This document shows, piece by piece, positions 4,038 to 61,031 of a stretch of 64,000 nucleotides of DNA. This DNA is from Candidatus Omnitrophica bacterium 4484_213 (GTDB lineage: Bacteria > Omnitrophota > 4484-213), in NCBI GenBank assembly GCA_002085025.1, contig MZGK01000002.1, positions 15,341-79,340 on the forward strand. Direction: 5' to 3'. A model generated the notes under the pieces. That model was not told where the DNA came from. It searched no databases and saw nothing but the letters and a program-made list of their open reading frames with translations. The number at the start of each line of letters is the position of its first letter. Positions within the stretch are counted from its first letter, which is position 1. A program made the translations under genes and the position numbers.

Positions 4038-5658
4038 TCCGAATTATCAACGAATTTACCCCGTTAGAAAGCCCCGTTTCCTTCTTCCTTATAGGGGCAA
4101 ATTCCTTATAGGAACGATAAAGAAGTTGTTCCCATTTATACTTGATAGAATTAGTCATTAGGCATTCTAGAATTCTTTTTACTACCTGTTGGATACTCAT
4201 CTCTGTTGTATCAATATAAATCGCGTCTTTGACCCTTTTTAAAGGAGCAACCTTTCTTTCGCTGTCCTTTTTGTCTCTAATTTTGATATTTTGCTCAATT
4301 TTTTCCAGAGATAATTTTTCTCCTTGTAGAGCTCCTGGTTGAGTAAGGAGTTGCTTGTATCGCCGTTTTGTTCTTTCTTCTATAGAGGCGTCTAAGTAAA
4401 ATTTCTTTGCCTGCGGGAAGACAACACTTCCTATATCTCTGCCCTCAGCAACGATATCTTTCCCCTCGCTTATCTTCCGCTGCAAGATAACCATCCTTTT
4501 TCTTATTTCAGGGAGTTTTGCCAAATAGAAAACTTTATTGGTTATCTCCTCTTTTCGGATTTCCCTCTCCACATCTTTCCCATCGAGAAGCAAAACCGGT
4601 TTCTTCGCTTTTTTAAAGCGGAAATTAATCTCTGTTTCTTGACACATTTTTATCAAGCGAGCCTTATCTCTTAAGTCAATCCCCTCCTTTATTGCCTTTA
4701 AGGTAATCGCCCGATACATTGCCCCAGTATCTAAATAGTAAAAACCCAATTTGGCTGCTAATTTTTGGCTAACTGCGCTCTTTCCTGCTCCTGCAGGCCC
4801 GTCAATAGCAATAACTATTCTCTCCTCCTTTAATTTTTTCTGCCTCGCTTTTTTAAATTCCTTTGTTATTTCCTGTGAATCCCCCTTCTGAATTAAATCT
4901 CGCATTATTATTAAATGTTCAATAAAAGCCTCAAGGGCCCTGCTAATTTCTTCTTTGTTGTCTATGCAGATATCCCTTCGCAATGAAGCATCGCTTAAAG
5001 CAATGCGGGTTGAATCTTTCCAACCCTTAGCCGCATATTTTAGGTATCTCTCAGAGACGGAATTCACCAAACTTACGGCGGCAATATGGGGCAAATGGCT
5101 TATCTCGGCTACAATTTTATCGTGCTGAGCAGCAGAGGTAATTTTTGCCCTGCTTCCTACCTCTTCCCATAATTGTTTAACCTTTTTTAAAGCGGCTATA
5201 TCTGTTTTCTTTGATTTTATTAAAAAGGTAAGTGAGTTAGCGAAGAGATCTCTACGCGCAGCTCTCACTCCTTTCTTCTCTGAGCCGGCTAAGGGATGAC
5301 CGCCAACAAAATGGATTTCCCGCGGGAGAATTCTTTCTATTTCTTGTGTAATTTTCTTCTTAGTGCTACCTACATCGGTTATCAGAGAACCTGCACGCAA
5401 AAAAGGGATGATCTTCTGGACAGTAGAAACAACTTCTCCCACCGGGGTGCAGATAATTATTAACTCACTTTCTTGGGCATCTTTTAGTTTTAAACTTCCT
5501 TTATCTATCGCTCCGAGTTTCACTGCCTCCTCTATTGTCTTCTCATGTTTAGCAATGCCAAAGACTTGTCTTGCTAACTTTTTTCTCTTTATAACCAATC
5601 CTAAAGAACCACCGATTAGACCTGTGCCAATAATGGTAATTTTATTGAATTTTTTCAT
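3946..5658 (-). CDS. Prephenate dehydrogenase fused in frame to cytidylate kinase; the 3' end of the ORF reads through a repeat element
   Basis: N-terminus has IIGTGLIGGSLG and HPLAG (TyrA). From about nt 4815 downward it reads IAIDGPAGAGKS...YLDTGAMYR (Cmk). The C-terminal 35 aa (YKWEQLLYRSYKEFAPIRKKETGLSNGVNSLI) are a translation of the repeat at 4045-4142, so the true stop is uncertain. Confidence 0.75.
   Translation of the reverse strand: MKKFNKITIIGTGLIGGSLGLVIKRKKLARQVFGIAKHEKTIEEAVKLGAIDKGSLKLKDAQESELIIICTPVGEVVSTVQKIIPFLRAGSLITDVGSTKKKITQEIERILPREIHFVGGHPLAGSEKKGVRAARRDLFANSLTFLIKSKKTDIAALKKVKQLWEEVGSRAKITSAAQHDKIVAEISHLPHIAAVSLVNSVSERYLKYAAKGWKDSTRIALSDASLRRDICIDNKEEISRALEAFIEHLIIMRDLIQKGDSQEITKEFKKARQKKLKEERIVIAIDGPAGAGKSAVSQKLAAKLGFYYLDTGAMYRAITLKAIKEGIDLRDKARLIKMCQETEINFRFKKAKKPVLLLDGKDVEREIRKEEITNKVFYLAKLPEIRKRMVILQRKISEGKDIVAEGRDIGSVVFPQAKKFYLDASIEERTKRRYKQLLTQPGALQGEKLSLEKIEQNIKIRDKKDSERKVAPLKRVKDAIYIDTTEMSIQQVVKRILECLMTNSIKYKWEQLLYRSYKEFAPIRKKETGLSNGVNSLIIRNALLFFPLSGKDFFQNIFSPKSTGNRKYSF
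4045..4142 (+). repeat. REP-like element family 1 (atcaacgaatttaccccgttagaaagccccg...ggaacgataaagaagttgttcc...), copy 1
   Basis: Near-identical about-95-bp copy at 26548-26646. Contains hairpins gcccc...ggggc and ggaac-GATAAAGAAGTT-gttcc. Confidence 0.8.
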
Positions 5659-13622: not shown

Positions 13623-13946
13623 TCACTTCCTCACATTATAAACTATATCATCGGCATCAAATTGATGGTTGCCGTCATTATCAAGGAAGATAACTACTGT
13701 CCCTGCTTTAGTATTATCTATTTTTACATCACTACCAGCCGGGTCTTTTGCCGTTATTGTCCCGCCAGTTCCGCATCCCCCATTTGCTACAGTTTCATTA
13801 GTAACACAGACCATCAACCCTGCTGTTCCCAACTTCTCCACCTGCTGGCCAATGGGAGTTACTACTGTGCGGATTTTAATTTCATCAGAGAGGCAAAGCC
13901 GCGAATAACAAAACTCGCGAAGCGAGAGCCGAAGTTCCCCCTGCAC
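13623..13946 (-). CDS. Small hypothetical protein. The N-terminal about 25 aa of the ORF are a translation of the structured repeat unit, so the real start is probably internal (e.g. MVCVTNET)
   Basis: MQGELRLSLREF is the same repeat-derived peptide seen at the C-terminus of ORF 56254..57138. The remainder (GGCGTGGTITAKDPAG...DNDGNHQFD) has no recognisable family. Confidence 0.3.
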   Translation of the reverse strand: MQGELRLSLREFCYSRLCLSDEIKIRTVVTPIGQQVEKLGTAGLMVCVTNETVANGGCGTGGTITAKDPAGSDVKIDNTKAGTVVIFLDNDGNHQFDADDIVYNVRK

Positions 13947-14025
13947 CAGAACGGTGCAGGATCCGCCGAAGCCTTAGCGTAGATGAGCTGAGGATAGAAG
14001 GTTTGAAAGCAAACCTTCACTATCC
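13913..14025 (+). ncRNA. Structured repeat unit (family 4): ctcgcgaagcgag-AGCCGAAG-[variable hairpin]-CTGAGGATAG-[GC hairpin]-T-run
   Basis: Same architecture as the units at 56262, 57783 and 60727. The terminal hairpin gaaggtttg-aaa-gcaaaccttc covaries with ggaaatctgc-aaa-gcagatttcc of the other copies. Confidence 0.6.
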
Positions 14026-14637
14026 TTTTTCCTTATTTATTTTCACTTTCCTCCCTTCCACCTTCAATCTCCCTTCGGCAAACAGTTTAATTGTCAAAGG
14101 ATAAATGATATGCTCTTGGCGGTGAATCTTCTGGCGCAGAGATTCTTCATTATCATCTTCCTCTATCTCTACGACTCTTTGGAGGACAATTGGGCCATTA
14201 TCTATCTTTTCATCTACAAAATGGACAGTGGCTCCACTGAACTTCACCCCATAATTTAGGGCATCGCGAACAGCATTTGTTGAGCCTTTAAACGCCGGGA
14301 GCAGACTTGGATGGATGTTAAAAATCTTATTAGGATACTTCTGGACAAAAAAAGGACTAAGTACGCGCATAAACCCGGCTAAAACAATCAGCCCAATGTT
14401 CTCCTCTTGTAAATAAGCAATGAGTTCCTTCTCAAATTCCTTTTGGGAAGAAAATTCCTGGGAGTCAAGAAATATTGTTTTAACTGCGGCTTTCTTTGCC
14501 CTTTGCAGGCAATGCGCCTCTTTATTATCGCTCACCACCAAAGAGAGCCTTGCTTTGATATCTCCACGCTGAACTGCCTCAATAATTGCCTGCAGGTTGG
14601 TGCCCTCTCCCGAACAAAAAACGGCAATATTTAACAC
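14020..14637 (-). CDS. purN: Phosphoribosylglycinamide formyltransferase
   Basis: IAVFCSGEGTNLQAII...NIHPSLLPAFKG. Confidence 0.85.
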   Translation of the reverse strand: MLNIAVFCSGEGTNLQAIIEAVQRGDIKARLSLVVSDNKEAHCLQRAKKAAVKTIFLDSQEFSSQKEFEKELIAYLQEENIGLIVLAGFMRVLSPFFVQKYPNKIFNIHPSLLPAFKGSTNAVRDALNYGVKFSGATVHFVDEKIDNGPIVLQRVVEIEEDDNEESLRQKIHRQEHIIYPLTIKLFAEGRLKVEGRKVKINKEKG

Positions 14638-15798: not shown

Positions 15799-17310
<1,512 letters not shown>

Positions 17311-17376
17311 TTAAGCGGCAAATCCCTCGCTGGGGGATTTGACCGCGTGCTTCGTGCGACCAACCCTATGCCGACC

Positions 17377-26529: not shown

Positions 26530-28831
26530 TTAAAAGTAGAGAGATATCAACGAATTTACCCCGTTAGAAAGCCCCGTTTCCTTCTTCCTTATAGGGGCAA
26601 ATTCCTTATAGGAACGATAAAGAAGTTGTTCCCATTTATACTTGATAGTCAATATCTCAGGCAACTTTTCTATGTTTCTAGCTGTGGCTTGGGCAAAGTC
26701 AACCTTCCCCCCGCCTCTTCCATCCAGCTGCTCGGCAATTTCATTAATCACCTGTCCACAGTGAATTTTCCCGCTTAAATCTCTCGTGGTAGTCATTATT
26801 AAATAAATCTTATTATCCTTCACCGAGGCCAAGCCAATAACATCTAAATCTATCTTTTTTCTGAGAACATCGGAGATCTCTCTTAATTCAGGAAAATCAA
26901 AACCGAAGAACTGGCGAATAACTACATCCCTTTCCTTCTCCTGATTAAGAGAAGCAAAGATGTCCTTAGCATAATAACCAAATAATTCTCTTTTCAATCT
27001 CTCATTTCTCTTCTTCGACTCTTTTAGCTGCTGAATAATATCCTTTGCTTTCTCAATTATTTTTTTACGCGAAGCAGAAAAGATTTGGGCAAGCTCTTCA
27101 ATCTTGTTTTCTTCTTCTTTTATTAATTGATAAAGTCCTTCGGACATGGACACCACCACAAAATTCCTTACTGTAATTACCGATAGAAACAACTTGCACT
27201 TCTTCTCCATATTTCTCCTCAAACAAACCAATTGCCCCAGCCTCAATTGCTTTTTGTTTGGGCATTAATTCCCTTTCCACGGCGTCATTGTTTAAAATTC
27301 TATTATTAACCATTTCCTCTACCTTTGTCAACTCCTCTTTGGTTAAACCCCGGGGGTGGGTAAAGTCAAAATGGAAATAAGCCGGAAAGATAATGGAACC
27401 GGCCTGTCTGATATGTCTGCCCAGAATTTCTCTTAACACACTTTGCAAAATGTGAGTGGCTGTGTGATTGCGAGCAACATCTATCTCTTCTTCTCCCCAC
27501 ACCCCTAGCAAAGGTAATCCTTGCTTTTTTGCCCTTTCCTTTTCATCTTGCTTAGTAAAAATTTGTTTATTAAAAACTGATTTTTCTCTTGAACGCCGAC
27601 GTTGTTTTTCCACATATTGAATGAATTTCTGCCTATTTAACTCAATTCCTCTCTGGGAGACCAAATTTTCAATTTCTTCATAGGGAAGACCATAAGTATC
27701 ATAGAGTTCAAAAGCGGTTTTTTCGTTTATATCCTTTTTGTTATCTAAAATTGATATCGCTCGATTTATTGTTTGGATAAATTTCGCTTCTTCCTCTTTT
27801 ATTGTTTCTTTTATCCTTTTTTCTGCCTCTTTGACCTCAGGATAAACGCCCTCGGCGAGTTTGACAACAACTGGCACTAAATTATATAAAAAAGGAGATT
27901 CTATCTTTAAATCTCTCCCCAAACTGGCTGCCTTGCGAATCAACTTTCTAATTACATAGCCTTCCCTTTCATTAGCGGGAATAGCACCATCAGCAATGGT
28001 AAATACGACCGCTCGGATGTAATCAGCAATGATATAATGAGCGGGTAGCGGGTAGCGGGTAGCGGGTAGCGGGAGAGATTCTACGATTAGCTTGAAGAGG
28101 TCGGTTTCAAAGTCGTTTCGCACACCTTGGAGCACTGCAGTGAGTCGTTCCAGGCCCATCCCGGTATCAACATTCTTATTTTTCAATTCTTCTATTTTGC
28201 CCTTATCGCGATTAAACTGGGTAAACACAAGGTTCCACACCTCTATAGAGTTATCGGGGCAGAATTCTTCCCTGCCTTGCTGGCCAGTAGCTTCCCAATC
28301 ATAGAAAATTTCCGAACAAGGACCACAAGGCCCATCCGGACCCTCCTCCAGGGCATTGCTTGGCCAGAAATTCTCTCTCGAACCAAATTTTTTAATCCTT
28401 TCTTCAGGAAGCCCGATTTTCTTTTTCCATATTTGCGCGCTCTCTTCATCGTCTTCAAAGACTGAAACCCATAACTTCTCAGCCGGGAGGCTTAACTTTG
28501 AGGTCAAGAATTCCCATGCCCACTTAATCGCCTCTTCCTTATAATAATCCCCAAAAGAAAAATTGCCCAGCATCTCAAAGAATGTGTGGTGGCCTGGAAC
28601 CCTCCCTACTTCTTCTATATCGGCTGTCCGCAAGCACTTCTGACAGGAAGCCGCTCTTTTTAGATCTTTGGGTGGATGCAAAAAGAACTCCTTGAATTGA
28701 TTCATCCCTGCTGAGGTGAATAATAAGGAAGGGTCATCTTGGGGAAGCAGAGAAGATGAAGGAAAAATCTTGTGCCCCTTTTCCTTGAAGAAACTCAAAA
28801 ATTTCTCTCTGATTTCATTAGCAGTTGTCAT
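26530..28831 (-). CDS. alaS: Alanyl-tRNA synthetase, split into two overlapping ORFs (27098..28831 and 26530..27246) by a frameshift near nt 27150; the C-terminus reads into REP-like element
   Basis: N-terminal catalytic core (FTSAGMNQFK...), then FCGGVHV where the frame is lost, and the continuation SEGLYQLIKEE...DHHA1 GRGGGKVDFAQA in another frame. Confidence 0.8.
26548..26646 (+). repeat. REP-like element family 1, copy 2
   Basis: Near-identical to 4045-4142. Confidence 0.8.
28041..28073. repeat. Heptanucleotide tandem repeat (GCGGGTA)x4.7 inside the alaS coding sequence
   Basis: gcgggtagcgggtagcgggtagcgggtagcggg encodes LPATRYPLPA in frame. Confidence 0.8.
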
Positions 28832-53258: not shown

Positions 53259-53738
53259 TCAACTATCCGATTGAAAATCCGATACCTTAAAGAACAACCA
53301 ATTCTTATCCTCGCTTAATTTGGGCCTTAATTTTAGCAAACAATAATTGCCTCTCAATCTATCTCCCTTTAATTCAAAGATTATTTTTTGAGGACCCCAC
53401 TCCTGCAAAGCATAACTCCCTTTATCCCAAATCTTCACTTTGCCGGCACCGTATAATCCATGAGGAATTTCTCCGGCAAAATCTGCGTAATCTAATGGAT
53501 GGTCTTCTACCTGGATTGCCAGACGTTTAATATTAAACTCTGTGGGCGGCTGCTTAGGAATAGCCCAGCTCTTCAGAACTCCATCTTTTTCCAAACGAAA
53601 GTCATAATGCAAGTGAGTTGCCTCGTGTCTTTGGATAACAAATATTGGTTCTTTTCCTCGTTTGAATTTTCTGGTTGCTTGTGGCTCAGGGGATTTGCTA
53701 AAATCGCGTTTTTTAAAATACTCGGTTAACTTTTCCAT
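53259..53738 (-). CDS. Stand-alone LigD-type 3'-phosphoesterase (PE) domain protein
   Basis: KRDFSKSPEP...FVIQRHEATHLHYDFRLEKDGVLKSWAIPK matches the LigD PE module; no ligase or Ku gene adjacent. Confidence 0.7.
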   Translation of the reverse strand: MEKLTEYFKKRDFSKSPEPQATRKFKRGKEPIFVIQRHEATHLHYDFRLEKDGVLKSWAIPKQPPTEFNIKRLAIQVEDHPLDYADFAGEIPHGLYGAGKVKIWDKGSYALQEWGPQKIIFELKGDRLRGNYCLLKLRPKLSEDKNWLFFKVSDFQSDS

Positions 53739-54651
53739 CGGAGAGAATTTCGTTCAGGGCATCTATCCCCTTTTTCTCAAGGTCCTGAACAAACCTCTGA
53801 AAAATCCTCTGCGTTGTTCGCACATCGCCCATTGCCCGATGTTCTTGTTCATAGTCAATCTCAATACCTAAAGAGCGAGCAATGCTTCCCAGATTATTAC
53901 TCCAGAAGTCAAAATAGCGGCGAGCAAGGGACAGCGTATCTACTATCGGGCAGGAAGGAAGGGGTAGATTAAGGACATTAAGTTCAGCCTTCAGAAAACC
54001 CATATCAAAGAAAGCATTATGACAAACAATAACTGTTCCTTCTAACCTCTTTAATATATCCTTGGCAACCTCGCTGAATCTGGGTTTGCCCCTTAGCATC
54101 TGGGGGGTTATTCTGTTTACGGCATAAGCCCCTTCTGAGATCGGACGTCCGGGGTCAATAAGGGTATGAAAAGAAGAAACATCCTTACCATTACGGCTTT
54201 TTAGAATAGCAACTTCACAAATTTTGTCTCCATTATAATGTTCCAGCCCGGTCGTCTCCACATCAAAAAAAGCAAAAGTAACATCCTTCATCATTTGTTT
54301 TTTTTTTCTACTCTTCATCCCGGGGGCCAGCTTAGCTTTCTTCCCCCTAATAGATGAAGGTGAATATGAAAAACCGCTTGCATCCTTGTTGTTGTTTAAC
54401 ACCAAACGATAGCCACTCTCGGCTATTCCTTTTTCTTCGGCGAGTTTTTTAGCAGTAAAGATGAGTTCGGAGATGATATCTTTATGCGATTCTTCTAAAT
54501 CGGAAATTCGAGAAATGTGTTTTTTAGGAATGATAAGGATATGCACCGGCGCTTGGGGATTAATGTCCTTAAAAGCCAAAACCTTCTCGTTTTCATAGAG
54601 AATATCAGCAGGAATCTGCTTTGCTATTATTCTGCAGAAAAGGCAATTCAT
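53713..54651 (-). CDS. Fusion protein: HIT-family hydrolase N-terminal domain plus DnaQ-like (DEDDh) 3'-5' exonuclease C-terminal domain
   Basis: N-terminus HIT fold (ILYENEKVLAFKDINPQAPVHILIIPKKHI). C-terminus FAFFDVETTGL...VCHNAFFDMGFL exonuclease motifs I-III. Confidence 0.65.
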   Translation of the reverse strand: MNCLFCRIIAKQIPADILYENEKVLAFKDINPQAPVHILIIPKKHISRISDLEESHKDIISELIFTAKKLAEEKGIAESGYRLVLNNNKDASGFSYSPSSIRGKKAKLAPGMKSRKKKQMMKDVTFAFFDVETTGLEHYNGDKICEVAILKSRNGKDVSSFHTLIDPGRPISEGAYAVNRITPQMLRGKPRFSEVAKDILKRLEGTVIVCHNAFFDMGFLKAELNVLNLPLPSCPIVDTLSLARRYFDFWSNNLGSIARSLGIEIDYEQEHRAMGDVRTTQRIFQRFVQDLEKKGIDALNEILSDGKVNRVF

Positions 54652-55818: not shown

Positions 55819-56238
55819 TTACCCCAACGTTTCAATCGCCTTATCATTATCTTCAACCTTCAAAATAAAACGACAGGGAGAAGTGCCCTCAGAAACAGTG
55901 CCATAGCAATACAGTAGATTAACACCTGCTGACTTTAATTTCGCCCCAATCTGGCTCAGTGCACCTATCTTATTTTCTAAATCAATCCTTACAACTTCTT
56001 CCTCTTCAACCTGCCACCCCTTTGTTTTAAGAGCGGGGATAACTTTCTGATTTTCCGAAGTAATGATGTAAAACTTCGCTTTTCCCTCTAAACCATGGGC
56101 ATTGATTGCTTCAATATTTACATCTGCCTCGCTTATGGCTTGACTTACCTCGGAAAGCATCCCAGCCTTATCTTCCGTAGTTATAACTAATTGACTTATC
56201 TTTATACCTGACTTCGGTTCAGGTCCTCTTTCTGTCAT
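55819..56238 (-). CDS. Tandem ACT-domain protein
   Basis: Two beta-alpha-beta-beta-alpha-beta modules (IKISQLVITTEDKAGMLSEV...; VRIDLENKIGALSQIGAKL...). Confidence 0.55.
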   Translation of the reverse strand: MTERGPEPKSGIKISQLVITTEDKAGMLSEVSQAISEADVNIEAINAHGLEGKAKFYIITSENQKVIPALKTKGWQVEEEEVVRIDLENKIGALSQIGAKLKSAGVNLLYCYGTVSEGTSPCRFILKVEDNDKAIETLG

Positions 56239-56253
56239 TTACACCTCCTTTCC

Positions 56254-57138
56254 TTACTCGCGAAGCGAGAGCCGAAGTTCCCCGTAGGGGAACTGAGGAT
56301 AGGAAATCTGCAAAGCAGATTTCCGCTTTTGTTTTTTTCCTTTCCTTACTAACGGACAACGCCCACAATCAGGTTTTGTCTTTTTGCAGATATCCTTTCC
56401 TAGACGCACAAAAAGGGCGTGGAACTCGTTGAACAATTGAGCATCTAAAGGTAGGTTCTGCATAAAAAGCTGTTGAATCTCCTGATAATCTGCCTTCTCG
56501 GAAATCAATTGGAGACGCGATAATATCCGGCGGGTATAAGCATCCACCACAAACACTGCTCTATTTCCCGCATAAAGCAAAATAGAATCGGCGGTCTCCC
56601 GACCAATACCTTTAATCTCCAATAACTCCTGACGGAGAAGATGCGTCTCTTTTTTAAACATCCTTTTGACACTACCGCCGTAATTAATAAACAGAAAATC
56701 TATAAACGCCTTCAGCTTTTTTGCTTTTTCATTAAAATAACCCGCAGAACGAATTGCCTTGGCTAAATCTTCGAGCGGCACATCCCTTAACCCTCGCGCC
56801 GAAAGCAACCCTTGTTCTTTGAGATTTCTGATCGCTTTCTCCACATTTGTCCAGGCCGTATTCTGGGTCAAGATTGCTCCGGCAATTATCTCAAGGGAAT
56901 CTTCTCCAGGCCACCAATTTTGTGGACCAAATGCCTTGTAGAGCCGCTGATAAATTGTCTGGATTTTCACCATCTCTTTCCCCCCTATAAAAACAGCAGA
57001 TTCCCGCCTGGATCTAAAAAGAGAAGAGAATCTCCCGCCATCTCCCTTTAACATCCTGCGCGATAACTTTAAATTTATACCAATATCTTTATTCAAACTA
57101 TTATCTATGAGAAGTGCACCTTTTCTTTTATTTTCCAA
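56254..57138 (-). CDS. HhH-GPD base-excision glycosylase (endonuclease III-like). The N-terminal about 57 aa and the C-terminal about 12 aa of the ORF are probably spurious (C-terminus is repeat-derived)
   Basis: GPQNWWPGEDSLEIIAGAILTQNTAWTNVEKAI...IKGIGRETADSILLYA HhH-GPD motifs. The C-terminal ...FPYGELRLSLRE is a translation of the family-4 unit. Confidence 0.65.
   Translation of the reverse strand: MENKRKGALLIDNSLNKDIGINLKLSRRMLKGDGGRFSSLFRSRRESAVFIGGKEMVKIQTIYQRLYKAFGPQNWWPGEDSLEIIAGAILTQNTAWTNVEKAIRNLKEQGLLSARGLRDVPLEDLAKAIRSAGYFNEKAKKLKAFIDFLFINYGGSVKRMFKKETHLLRQELLEIKGIGRETADSILLYAGNRAVFVVDAYTRRILSRLQLISEKADYQEIQQLFMQNLPLDAQLFNEFHALFVRLGKDICKKTKPDCGRCPLVRKGKKQKRKSALQISYPQFPYGELRLSLRE
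56262..56360 (+). ncRNA. Family-4 structured unit (ccttactcgcgaagcgag-AGCCGAAG-ttccccgtaggggaa-CTGAGGATAG-gaaatctgcaaagcagatttc-cgcttttgttttttt) plus abortive start of a second unit
   Basis: On the plus strand it ends in a canonical hairpin-plus-T7 intrinsic terminator. Its reverse complement ends ...CGCGAGTAAGGAAAGGAGGTGTAAATG, i.e. the SD and start of the ACT-domain gene. Confidence 0.65.
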
Positions 57139-57465: not shown

Positions 57466-57545
57466 ATGGCCGGCTAAACCCCGTTAGAAACGTTGCCAAA
57501 TAATTTCATTTTGGAAGGGATCCCTAACGGGGTAAACCGGCCTCT
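57466..57545 (-). terminator. Long REP-like hairpin (ggccggctaaaccccgttag ... ctaacggggtaaaccggcc) followed on the minus strand by a U-run: cspA terminator
   Basis: About 20-bp arms of the GTTTACCCCGTTAG family. Minus-strand sequence after the hairpin is atatttttt. Confidence 0.6.
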
Positions 57546-57558
57546 TTGTCTTTTTAGG

Positions 57559-57759
57559 TTATAACTTCACTACATTTGTGGCTTGTTCACCTTTAGAGCT
57601 TTGCTCGATATCAAACTCAACCTCCTGGCCTTCCTCCAAAGACTTAAAACCTTCACCCTGAATTGCACTATAATGTACAAATATGTCATTGCCTCCCTCA
57701 GGGGTAATAAATCCATAACCTTTCTGGTTGCTGAACCATTTCACCTTTCCTCTTGCCAT
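57559..57759 (-). CDS. cspA: Cold-shock protein
   Basis: [33 protein letters not shown] (RNP1/RNP2 motifs). 66 aa. Confidence 0.9.
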
Positions 57760-57770
57760 TACTTATTTCA

Positions 57771-58040
57771 CCTCCTTTCCTTACTCGCGAAGCGAGAGCC
57801 GAAGTTCCCCGTAGGGGAACTGAGGATAGGAAATCTGCAAAGCAGATTTCCGCTTTTGTCTTTTTCTTTCCTTACTCGCGAAGCGAGAGCCGAAGCCAGC
57901 CAATTTCCTTTTAAGGACAATAGAGAAGTTGTCCCTAATAATACCTGTAGCTTTAGCGCAGGTAGGCTGAGGATGGTCCCGAAGTTTCGGGGGGAATGGA
58001 GCAGGATAAATCTACTCTGCAAATTTCGCTCTCGTTTCCC
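57771..58040 (+). ncRNA. Two tandem family-4 structured units forming the long 5' leader of cspA (minus strand); the second unit is expanded with extra hairpins
   Basis: Unit A 57771-57866 is identical in its core to 56262-56345. Unit B 57867-58040 keeps ctcgcgaagcgag-agccgaag and ctgaggatgg but has a larger variable region including the ggacaATAGAGAAGTTgtcc hairpin. The reverse complement of the junction gives CGCGAGTAAGGAAAGGAGGTGAAATAAGTAATGGCAAGA (SD plus cspA start). Confidence 0.65.
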
Positions 58041-58044
58041 TAAT

Positions 58045-58140
58045 AAAACGAGTATAGCATATACTATTTTTTTCTACTTGTCAACCCTGTTAAATAACCT
58101 GGGGCAATTCGCCATAGGCGAATTATTTAACAGGGTTGAC
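58045..58140 (-). promoter_or_regulatory. Candidate cspA promoter (minus strand TTGACA-N17-TATGCT) overlapped by a 19-bp perfect inverted repeat ttgtcaaccctgttaaataa ... ttatttaacagggttgac with inner hairpin ggcaattcgcc/ggcgaattatt
   Basis: The motifs are visible. The -35 hexamer is part of the palindrome arm, a classic operator arrangement. Confidence 0.4.
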
Positions 58141-58154
58141 TAAATTAATCTAAA

Positions 58155-60361: not shown

Positions 60362-60717
60362 TTATCCTGAGATTTTCTTTAGTAAATCTGCAAATCTCTT
60401 GGCAAATCTTTGGCAGTTAGCTTCTACCCTTTTGTCCAAAGCGCCAATGGCTACCGGGCCATAGTGGTCGCCCTCGGAGTCGCCCTGAACAACCATTCCG
60501 TGAATAAGCATTGCCTCTAAAATGCTCAAGATAGCGGTTTCATTTCCTCCGCCGATATTATTAGAAGAAGTGAATGCTCCTCCTATTTTTCCATCCAACT
60601 TTCCTCAACCCTTTTAAGAATAACCTCCAGATTTTCTTTTTTAATGGACTCAGCGATTGTCTCAGCCATCTGTTTGGTATTCCCTGTCTTTGAATAATAA
60701 GCAATCAATACCTTCAT
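60362..60717 (-). pseudogene. WrbA-like flavodoxin (NAD(P)H:quinone oxidoreductase) in two frames with the central about 70 aa absent
   Basis: MKVLIAYYSKTGNTKQMAETIAESIKKENLEVILKRVEE (WrbA N-terminus) ends at stop 60583. A second frame gives LDGKIGGAFTSSNNIGGGNETAILSILEAMLIHGMVVQGDSEGDHYGPVAIGALD (WrbA C-terminal half). Confidence 0.5.
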
Positions 60718-61025
60718 TTTGTACCTTTTTTCCTTACTCGCCGAAGGCGAGAGCCGAAGCCCGCCTACGCTCGTAGGCGGGCTGAGGATAGGAAATCTGC
60801 AAAGCAGATTTCCGCTTTTTGTCTTTTCCTTTCTCGCGAATCGAGAGCCTGCCTGCGCCCGTAAGGGTAAGCGAAACGAAGGATAGAAATGGACGAAGTC
60901 CATTTCGCTTTTATTTATTTCCTTTCTTTGCTCGCCAGTTCCTTTTAAGGGCAATAGAGAAGTTGCCCCTAATTATACCTGAAGGTGAGAGCCAAAGCCT
61001 CGAGAGTTCAAGGCTGAGGATAAAA
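60718..61025 (+). ncRNA. Three tandem family-4 structured units between the flavodoxin gene and the wrbA-like gene
   Basis: Unit 1 (60727-60815) has ctcgccgaaggcgag and cccgcctacgctcgtaggcggg as covarying substitutes for hairpins 1 and 2. Unit 2 (60822-60905) has ctcgcgaatcgag and a terminal hairpin aaatggacgaagtccattt plus T-run. Unit 3 (60910-61025) carries gggcaATAGAGAAGTTgccc and ends ctgaggataaaag. Confidence 0.65.
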
Positions 61026-61031
61026 GTATAG

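Follow-up and report, generated by a model that had tools for sequence, protein, structure and literature searches.

A glycosylase reading frame extended into a three-hairpin repeat: probable deletion within a Shine-Dalgarno-joined leader array in Omnitrophota

Rickettsia palindromic elements insert in frame inside genes, and the STAB-SD of cryIIIA (GAAAGGAGG) and the 5'-terminal hairpin of ompA are single, gene-specific 5' stabilisers of mRNA with experimental support. Modular repeats are represented by the BOX elements of Streptococcus pneumoniae, which vary in module number, are co-transcribed, create open reading frames (ORFs) and are found in one species group (PMC3049150), and by BIMEs, which are mosaics of palindromes and linkers (PMC2817692, PMC3184786). 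Here we describe a repeat unit lying between a glycosylase gene and an ACT-domain gene in a 64,000-nt stretch of DNA (hereafter the window) from Candidatus Omnitrophica bacterium 4484_213. As judged from sequence, the family to which it belongs most resembles modular repeats of the BOX/BIME type, but is locked in the sense orientation and ends in the Shine-Dalgarno sequence (SD) of the next gene.

The units share with BOX, as well as with RUP and SPRITE (PMC3049150), a modular interspersed build, a variable number of modules, restriction to a species group, co-transcription with neighbours and extensive secondary structure; like BOX they also give rise to new or altered ORFs, at times interrupt genes, and vary in copy number from strain to strain. 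The two are unrelated in sequence, and BOX elements have the structure A-B(n)-C with complementary ends and occur in both orientations, whereas our units are direct head-to-tail repeats, nearly always sense, whose 3' end is fused in one constant register to the SD of the following gene. This likeness is drawn from a comparison of architecture (PMC3049150) and denotes a functional resemblance, not membership. With the REP/BIME repeats of enterobacteria and pseudomonads, which are associated with RAYT transposases (PMC2817692, PMC3184786), the units have in common that they are mosaics of a few hairpin types and conserved linkers, occupy transcribed intergenic or intercistronic space, reach high copy number and act as hotspots of recombination. 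In BIMEs, successive REPs face in opposite directions, each has a conserved GT(A/G)G head, and their usual place is 3' of genes, while the modules of our units are all direct, comprise at least six unrelated stem sequences, have no GTAG head and form arrays that end at an SD. The 7 units of the window and the 44 found overall were direct and without a common head when examined as REP/BIME candidates. Examined as MITEs, their ends (the A-rich linker and GCGAGTAAGG) were not inverted repeats, and the flanks of first units held no consistent duplication. The unit at the glycosylase gene and the Rickettsia elements are alike in that a repeat is translated within a host protein whose conserved domain is intact, although the former became coding only through deletion of the native gene end. 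The STAB-SD and ompA stabilisers, like our units, combine SD-like purine tracts (AAGGAAAGG in the units) or stable hairpins with a position in the leader upstream of the true ribosome-binding site; the units differ in being a repeated cassette.

All plausible genes of at least 100 aa in the window lie on the - strand, and the junction between the two genes is therefore read on that strand; the + strand ORFs of this size all overlap longer - strand ORFs. From 5' to 3', the glycosylase codons TGT CCG TTA are followed by GTAAGGAAAGG, the A-rich linker, hairpin A, CTATCCTCAG, hairpin B, CTTCGGCT, hairpin C, TAAGGAAAGGAGGTG, TAA and the ATG of the ACT gene (Table 1). The unit thus has the form that defines the family, namely hairpin A-CTATCCTCAG-hairpin B-CTTCGGCT-CTCGC(N3-4)GCGAG-(T/A/G)AAGGAAAGG, and a 51-mer of it is found again, exactly, at 57801-57851, 1.5 kb away (0 expected by chance). 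An earlier note on this DNA had described a repeat unit at 56262-56360 that joins the SD of the ACT gene at GGAGGTG-TAA-ATG. Reading of the sequence bears out both the repeat and its fusion to the SD, with limits that were slightly off.

Table 1. Positions of the repeat unit, the adjoining genes and related features in the window.
Feature	Position	Strand	Basis or remark
Repeat-derived stretch, one copy of the three-hairpin repeat	56242-56349	-	read from sequence
Repeat unit proper	56242-56336	-	covariance model R1: 106 bits, E 6e-20
ATG of ACT gene	56238-56236	-	read from sequence
Spacer TAA before ACT ATG	56241-56239	-	
SD GGAGGTG (perfect Shine-Dalgarno)	56248-56242	-	unit 3' end TAAGGAAAGG merges into SD
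TAAGGAAA	56256-56249	-	its TAA (56256-56254) is the glycosylase ORF stop
Hairpin C, CTCGC-TTC-GCGAG	56269-56257	-	
Linker CTTCGGCT	56277-56270	-	
Hairpin B, TTCCCC-TAC-GGGGAA	56292-56278	-	
Linker CTATCCTCAG	56302-56293	-	
Hairpin A, GGAAATCTGC-TTT-GCAGATTTCC	56324-56302	-	
A-rich linker	56338-56325	-	
Stump of junction to a presumably lost upstream unit, GTAAGGAAAGG + start of A-rich linker	56337-56349	-	
ACT-domain gene, 139 aa, SD fused to unit	55819-56238	-	Pfam ACT
Conserved part of HhH-GPD (endonuclease III-related) glycosylase gene, end at ...CGRCPL	56350-56973	-	Pfam PF00730 HhH-GPD, E 5e-18; 8000 homologues
Repeat-encoded 31-codon tail VRKGKKQKRKSALQISYPQFPYGELRLSLRE + TAA stop (56254-56256)	56254-56349	-	ORF translation
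Two-unit array forming the cspA leader; second unit with inserted 'D2' hairpin module	57769-58030	-	preceded by promoter 58084-58056
Three-unit array between two flavodoxin genes	60722-61030	-	covariance model
Single unit; 3' end replaces SD, ATG and about 13 signal-peptide codons of a small secreted-protein gene	13899-14030	-	
Private deletions of 5 nt + 22 nt in HIT gene	54230-54400		versus L001, L002, L037
Private deletion of 118 nt between GGAAGT and GGAAAGT repeats, second flavodoxin gene	about 60601-60604		versus otherwise 100%-identical L025
Second modular repeat 'D2'	57905-57950, 60939-60984, 4102-4147, 26602-26647, 17273-17318, 1498-1543	sense strand	

A covariance model (R1) built from 17 copies of the unit recovered 7 copies in the window, at four loci and all on the - strand (E 6e-20 to 0.13), and 44 units in the window together with 27 further loci. 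Both linkers, as well as hairpin C, are all but invariant, the linkers even across species, while the stems vary, hairpins A and B being drawn from at least six unrelated palindromes. Base pairing holds in 95% of the stem cells, and both sides have changed in 139 of them, compared with 38.5 for shuffles; RNAalifold extends hairpin B by a conserved pairing of CCUCAG with CUUCGG. An exact-pattern scan of 185,579 species representatives returned two, both Omnitrophota MAGs (AUK068 and CSMAG_2090), and a scan of metagenomes added contigs from a few related samples; matches set aside were metagenome contigs L024, L028 and L036, where the surrounding unit sequence is lacking, and the viral contig L042, whose 52-nt match spans the same sequence as those of L028 and L036. 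Rfam, run on the whole window at the gathering threshold, reported three tRNAs and no match to the unit, for which the best sub-threshold hit scored 21 bits against a cut-off of 67, and our search of the literature on Omnitrophota repeats and structured-RNA motifs found no paper on this family. We conclude that it is an undescribed, fast-changing three-hairpin repeat of a small Omnitrophota group, with arrays that are completely remodelled between genomes of ~95% identity. Short-read contigs of this population repeatedly end inside unit arrays (L003-L007, L030, L037 and L043), so that unit counts may be underestimates. Arrays can also grow by 26-nt sub-modules. On L041, at 1390-1490, the hairpin (C/T)CCGACTTGCGTCGG(A/G) plus GCTTCGGCTC occurs three times in tandem. 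A hammerhead ribozyme was considered and rejected: CTGAGGA on the + strand fits the CUGANGA box, but on both strands the second hairpin lacks a GAAA after it, and Rfam gave nothing. UUCG tetraloops, as evidence for RNA on the sense strand, were likewise dismissed, the loops actually being triloops (UUC, UAC, UUU) closed by C-G.

In about 25 loci the last unit ends in ...GCGAG(T/A/G)AAGGAAAGGAGG with the ATG 4-9 nt further on, and fusion to the SD is thus a general property of the family and not peculiar to the ACT locus. At about 20 genes, units occupy the whole stretch between the SD and the stop codon or promoter upstream. By Pfam, the genes downstream of arrays encode two HU-family proteins (Bac_DNA_binding; one listed as IHF-like), EF-Ts, GroES, PanD, RibH, DUF5320, a UVR-motif protein, T2SS-F, a zinc-ribbon protein, CspA, an ACT-domain protein and flavodoxin, to which DnaK-type and S20-type genes can be added on their N-terminal sequence only; one array runs straight into tRNA-Met. 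Units are kept before the same genes (HU, EF-Ts, PanD, ACT and cspA) in different lineages. Near-consensus promoters precede the arrays of cspA (TTGACA-17-TATGCT) and S20 (TTGACA-17-TATAAT). The idea of a promoter directly upstream of every array was discarded, a consensus-like one (by a crude consensus) being present at 5 of the 33, while several arrays are intercistronic and start right after the upstream stop codon (for example before EF-Ts, GroES and HU). Thirty-two of the 33 arrays point to the next gene. The sole reversed unit, at 2305-2397 of L017, lies between tRNA-Ala and an EF-G-like gene (identified by N-terminal sequence only), where its antisense hairpin A and U-run could terminate the tRNA transcript.

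The glycosylase ORF spans 56254-56973, or reaches 57138 from an upstream TTG, and ends in ...CPLVRKGKKQKRKSALQISYPQFPYGELRLSLRE*. As had been reported earlier, it stays open until the unit has been translated; its first stop is the TAA in the unit-SD junction (GAG-TAA-GGAAAGGAGG). The C-terminal CX6CX2CPL motif is present and is conserved in the alignment of homologues, and the conserved region of the family stops at CPL (8000 homologues). The nearest orthologues (97% and 93% identity) terminate in ...CPLKKVSNRQSPGHQRSEN, and distant homologues stop 1-20 unconserved residues past CPL, many of them after 1-3. The 31-aa tail was absent from all homologues compared, and a protein search found no proteins with the unit-derived peptide; within the window, the spurious ORF 57781-57903 repeats the whole tail peptide. 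GenBank has the exact read-through protein, of 239 aa, as OQX54622.1 (B5M48_00645, 'hypothetical protein', Candidatus Omnitrophica bacterium 4484_213), which can be recognised as an endonuclease III-related glycosylase whose last 31 residues are repeat-derived, on one contig only.

Comparison with relatives indicates that the read-through was caused by a deletion, which would have removed the end of the glycosylase gene, its stop codon and the ACT promoter; the frame runs through the unit because the contig has lost the gene's own end. On contig L043, positions 1-2289 are 100% identical to 58638-56350 of the window, up to the base right after CCGTTA, and 2495-2599 are 100% identical to 56350-56246. 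Between these two blocks L043 holds 16 more glycosylase codons, a stop, a short spacer, a TTGACA-N17-TAAAGT promoter and unit 1, such that the window equals L043 minus 205 nt and a further 92 nt for each additional unit (205 + 92k). The left breakpoint falls after the Leu codon of CPL (between 56349 and 56350) and the right one before GTAAGG in a junction between units; the two share a microhomology of 1 nt. The 48-nt junction sequence GTAAGGAAAGGAAAAAAACAAAAGCGGAAATCTGCTTTGCAGATTTCC is present twice in L043 (2496-2543 and 2588-2635) and once in the window (56302-56349). The glycosylase end and promoter are intact, as in L043, in L001 (99.9% identical) and L002 (95% identical). Beyond CPL, the intact allele of L001 and L043 has 16 codons and TAA, then a short spacer, TTGACA-N17-TAAAGT and the array; this promoter is found in L001, L002 and L043 and is missing from the window. 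The locus carries one unit in L001 (a count that may be too low, as noted above for contigs ending in arrays), at least three in L043, the end of which falls within the third unit, and about five in L002. A simple deletion from a single-unit allele of the L001 type is ruled out by 38 differing nucleotides, which the multi-unit allele of L043 accounts for.

These comparisons settle several points of the earlier note. Its 'partial second unit', taken as a sign of unit gain and loss, equals base for base the inter-unit junction of the L043 array and represents loss. The true stop of the glycosylase gene, which the note had called unclear, lies 48 nt past the CPL codons in relatives and is deleted here. 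Where the note had envisaged orthologous loci lacking the unit, the orthologous loci carry one to about five units and an intact gene end. The note would have been refuted by orthologues that conserve the C-terminal peptide; their tails differ or are missing, and its view that the tail is not conserved coding sequence stands. Its view that units create artefactual ORF extensions holds for ORF 13623-13946, the N-terminus of which derives from a unit, but not for the glycosylase, the native stop being physically missing from the contig.

Taken as a whole, a deletion within a leader array of an SD-fused, BOX/BIME-type family provides the best explanation of the locus (probability about 0.75), with the read-through ORF as its ordinary consequence. 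The unit at 56242-56349 would then be all that survives of a tandem array built from a modular three-hairpin repeat specific to this lineage. Within this Omnitrophota population such an array probably forms a transcribed leader that runs from a sigma-70-type promoter to the ACT SD. The deletion, of 205 nt and some whole number of 92-nt units, would have taken away the last 16 glycosylase codons and stop, the short spacer, the ACT promoter and all units except the last. The glycosylase frame now runs via the junction stump into the unit, adds 31 unconserved residues and stops at GAG-TAA-GGAAAGGAGG, 15 nt before the ACT ATG. With the promoter gone, we infer that the ACT gene is expressed solely by read-through from the glycosylase transcript, and since the glycosylase stop sits atop the SD, 15 nt before the ATG, translation of the two genes is probably coupled by termination and reinitiation. 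Translating ribosomes would also melt the leader hairpins. More generally, recombination between identical units would allow arrays to expand, contract and delete into neighbouring genes.

Could the junction instead be an assembly or chimeric-read artefact, with cells keeping the native glycosylase end and stop as in all other assemblies? The read-through allele is confined to one 87,772-nt contig, its only other copy being the IMG version of the same contig, and the otherwise identical glycosylase with the native tail is found in at least four other assemblies. The contig also bears three further private deletions within 8 kb relative to ~100% identical contigs (Table 1), and short-read assemblies break or collapse at identical tandem units. 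Against an artefact, the left breakpoint, CCGTTA, lies in unique coding sequence that has no k-mer in common with the unit, and collapse of the repeat can therefore not have made the junction. The other private deletions have flanking microhomology, as real deletions do, and an analogous unit-into-gene junction at 13.9 kb is present in the independent assemblies P0122 and P0132. With repeat collapse excluded, we favour a real strain variant, which rests on a single short-read metagenome contig, and regard an artefact as rather unlikely. The notion that selection maintains the tail as a real extension of the glycosylase C-terminus is effectively refuted, as far as sequence comparison can tell: the frame is open across the unit, and open in the same frame at two other places, but no homologue has the tail, otherwise identical proteins in four assemblies bear a different one of 16 residues, and conservation in the family stops at CPL, with many members ending 1-3 residues on.

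As to what the units do, we tentatively see in them a co-transcribed RNA leader or intercistronic cassette, in which a strong SD flanked by stable hairpins would modulate mRNA stability or translation. Their sense orientation, fixed SD register, invariant linkers across species and retention before the same genes point to such a role at the RNA level. Neutral or adverse to it are the like hairpin energies of the sense and antisense strands and the small share of arrays with a consensus-like promoter directly upstream (5 of 33). With regard to pairing of the SD in the leader structure, as in riboregulators of the RNA-thermometer type, the mean unpaired probability predicted for GGAGG differs weakly between native and shuffled leaders (0.32 versus 0.23, n = 14, p = 0.06). 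Nearly as likely, the family consists of MITE-, REP- or BOX-like interspersed repeats that are selfish or neutral and serve no host function; they would then lie at the SD through a preferred insertion site or through recombination at purine-rich, SD-like sequence, with collateral effects on genes. A restricted taxonomic range and rapid turnover are as compatible with selfish DNA as with function: exact matches are confined to the two species representatives, arrays are wholly remodelled between close genomes, a given locus can have units or lack them (L041 versus L038, and the flavodoxin pair), and units intrude into genes. Reasoning of this kind has also been applied to BOX, RUP and SPRITE (PMC3049150). 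Stem mismatches, moreover, are strand-symmetric (18 G.U versus 19 A.C), which makes wobble-pair asymmetry uninformative as strand evidence. However, terminal inverted repeats and target-site duplications were not seen, and a selfish origin sits less easily with the near-uniform orientation of arrays, the GGAGG register fixed in about 25 loci, the units kept before HU, EF-Ts, PanD, ACT and cspA in different lineages, and linkers that are invariant between species where stems vary. It is improbable that the antisense (+) strand is the functional one, hairpin A followed by GCTTTTGTCTTTTT acting as an intrinsic terminator against antisense transcription, or the hairpins as single-stranded DNA structures with GNA triloops. 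A consensus scan found no intrinsic terminator on the sense strand of the unit and matches on the + strand only (56302-56324 and 57829-57851), the + strand loops are GAA, GTA or AAA, and the reversed L017 unit stands right after tRNA-Ala, where a terminator is expected; yet it is the only one of 33 arrays so oriented relative to its neighbours, SD fusion and the fixed distance to the ATG belong to the sense strand, and the T-run is simply the complement of the A-rich linker. A bolder version of the leader, which we consider decidedly unlikely, would make the units a dedicated, clade-specific cis-regulatory system: a portable cassette whose linkers and CTCGC-N3-GCGAG hairpin are invariant and which has several GGA/SD-like tracts, recognised by a protein (CsrA-like or other) or by idle 30S subunits, that co-ordinates highly expressed and stress genes (HU, GroES, DnaK, CspA, EF-Ts and S20), with unit number as a rapidly evolving expression dial. 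If the units are functional, an SD-fused, orientation-locked modular repeat before many highly expressed genes would amount to a simple natural 'leader cassette', and its copy-number differences between near-identical strains would offer a convenient system for repeat-tuned expression in an uncultivated phylum.

The glycosylase is not the only gene into which a unit junction reaches. ORF 13623-13946 begins MQGELRLSLRE FCYSRLCLS DEIK..., and contains at its N-terminus the GELRLSLRE of the glycosylase tail, as had been pointed out in the earlier note, whereas its relatives start with the signal peptide MSKKFLFALICVSFLLFASICVS DEIK.... At 13.9 kb hairpin C (GCGAG) is joined directly to codons from midway through the signal peptide, and the ORF can be regarded as a 5'-truncated secreted-protein gene; in L041 a unit, a perfect SD and the ATG stand ahead of this gene, and in L038 there is no unit. 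From these two junctions, units therefore appear to mark, repeatedly, the end-points of deletions that reach into genes, and because the frame ...GELRLSLRE happens to be open, the ORFs are lengthened. The two flavodoxin genes overlap by 4 nt in the relative L002, with no array between them, which suggests that the array in the window was inserted between formerly overlapping genes. The private deletions also alter ORFs. The 118-nt deletion cuts the second flavodoxin gene to 44 codons, and the 5- and 22-nt deletions shift the frame of the HIT gene across its histidine triad and, totalling 27 nt, restore it, leaving HIT fused to an RNase T-like gene in ORF 53713-54651 (312 aa). Short-read assemblies break at unit arrays, which also give rise to spurious ORFs and to deletions that extend into adjoining genes, and gene calls beside arrays in Omnitrophota MAGs thus deserve caution.

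The second modular repeat, D2, consists of a TATAAT-like box and a hairpin with a covarying stem and conserved loop AACTTCTCTATC, followed by TATAAGGAAC. It is placed alone in leaders, inside the hairpin C loop of units and, elsewhere, directly before GGAGG. Two stretches of 104 nt, at 4045-4148 and 26545-26648, are 100% identical and lie just upstream of two different - strand gene starts; they hold D2 and the motif CTTTCTAACGGGGTAAA, which is also present downstream of cspA (about 57515-57540). A related motif to TTTAACAGGGTTGACA, AAATAGTCGCTACGCGAATTTAACAGGG, occurs in either orientation in relatives and is missing from the window. In both the cspA and the ACT promoter the -35 box lies within TTTAACAGGGTTGACA itself, which upstream of cspA forms a 65-nt perfect palindrome. 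The sites concerned are 58072-58143 of the window, L001 1590-1625 and L038 1420-1450. The + strand ORF 57583-58143, which runs antisense through cspA and its array, is probably spurious.
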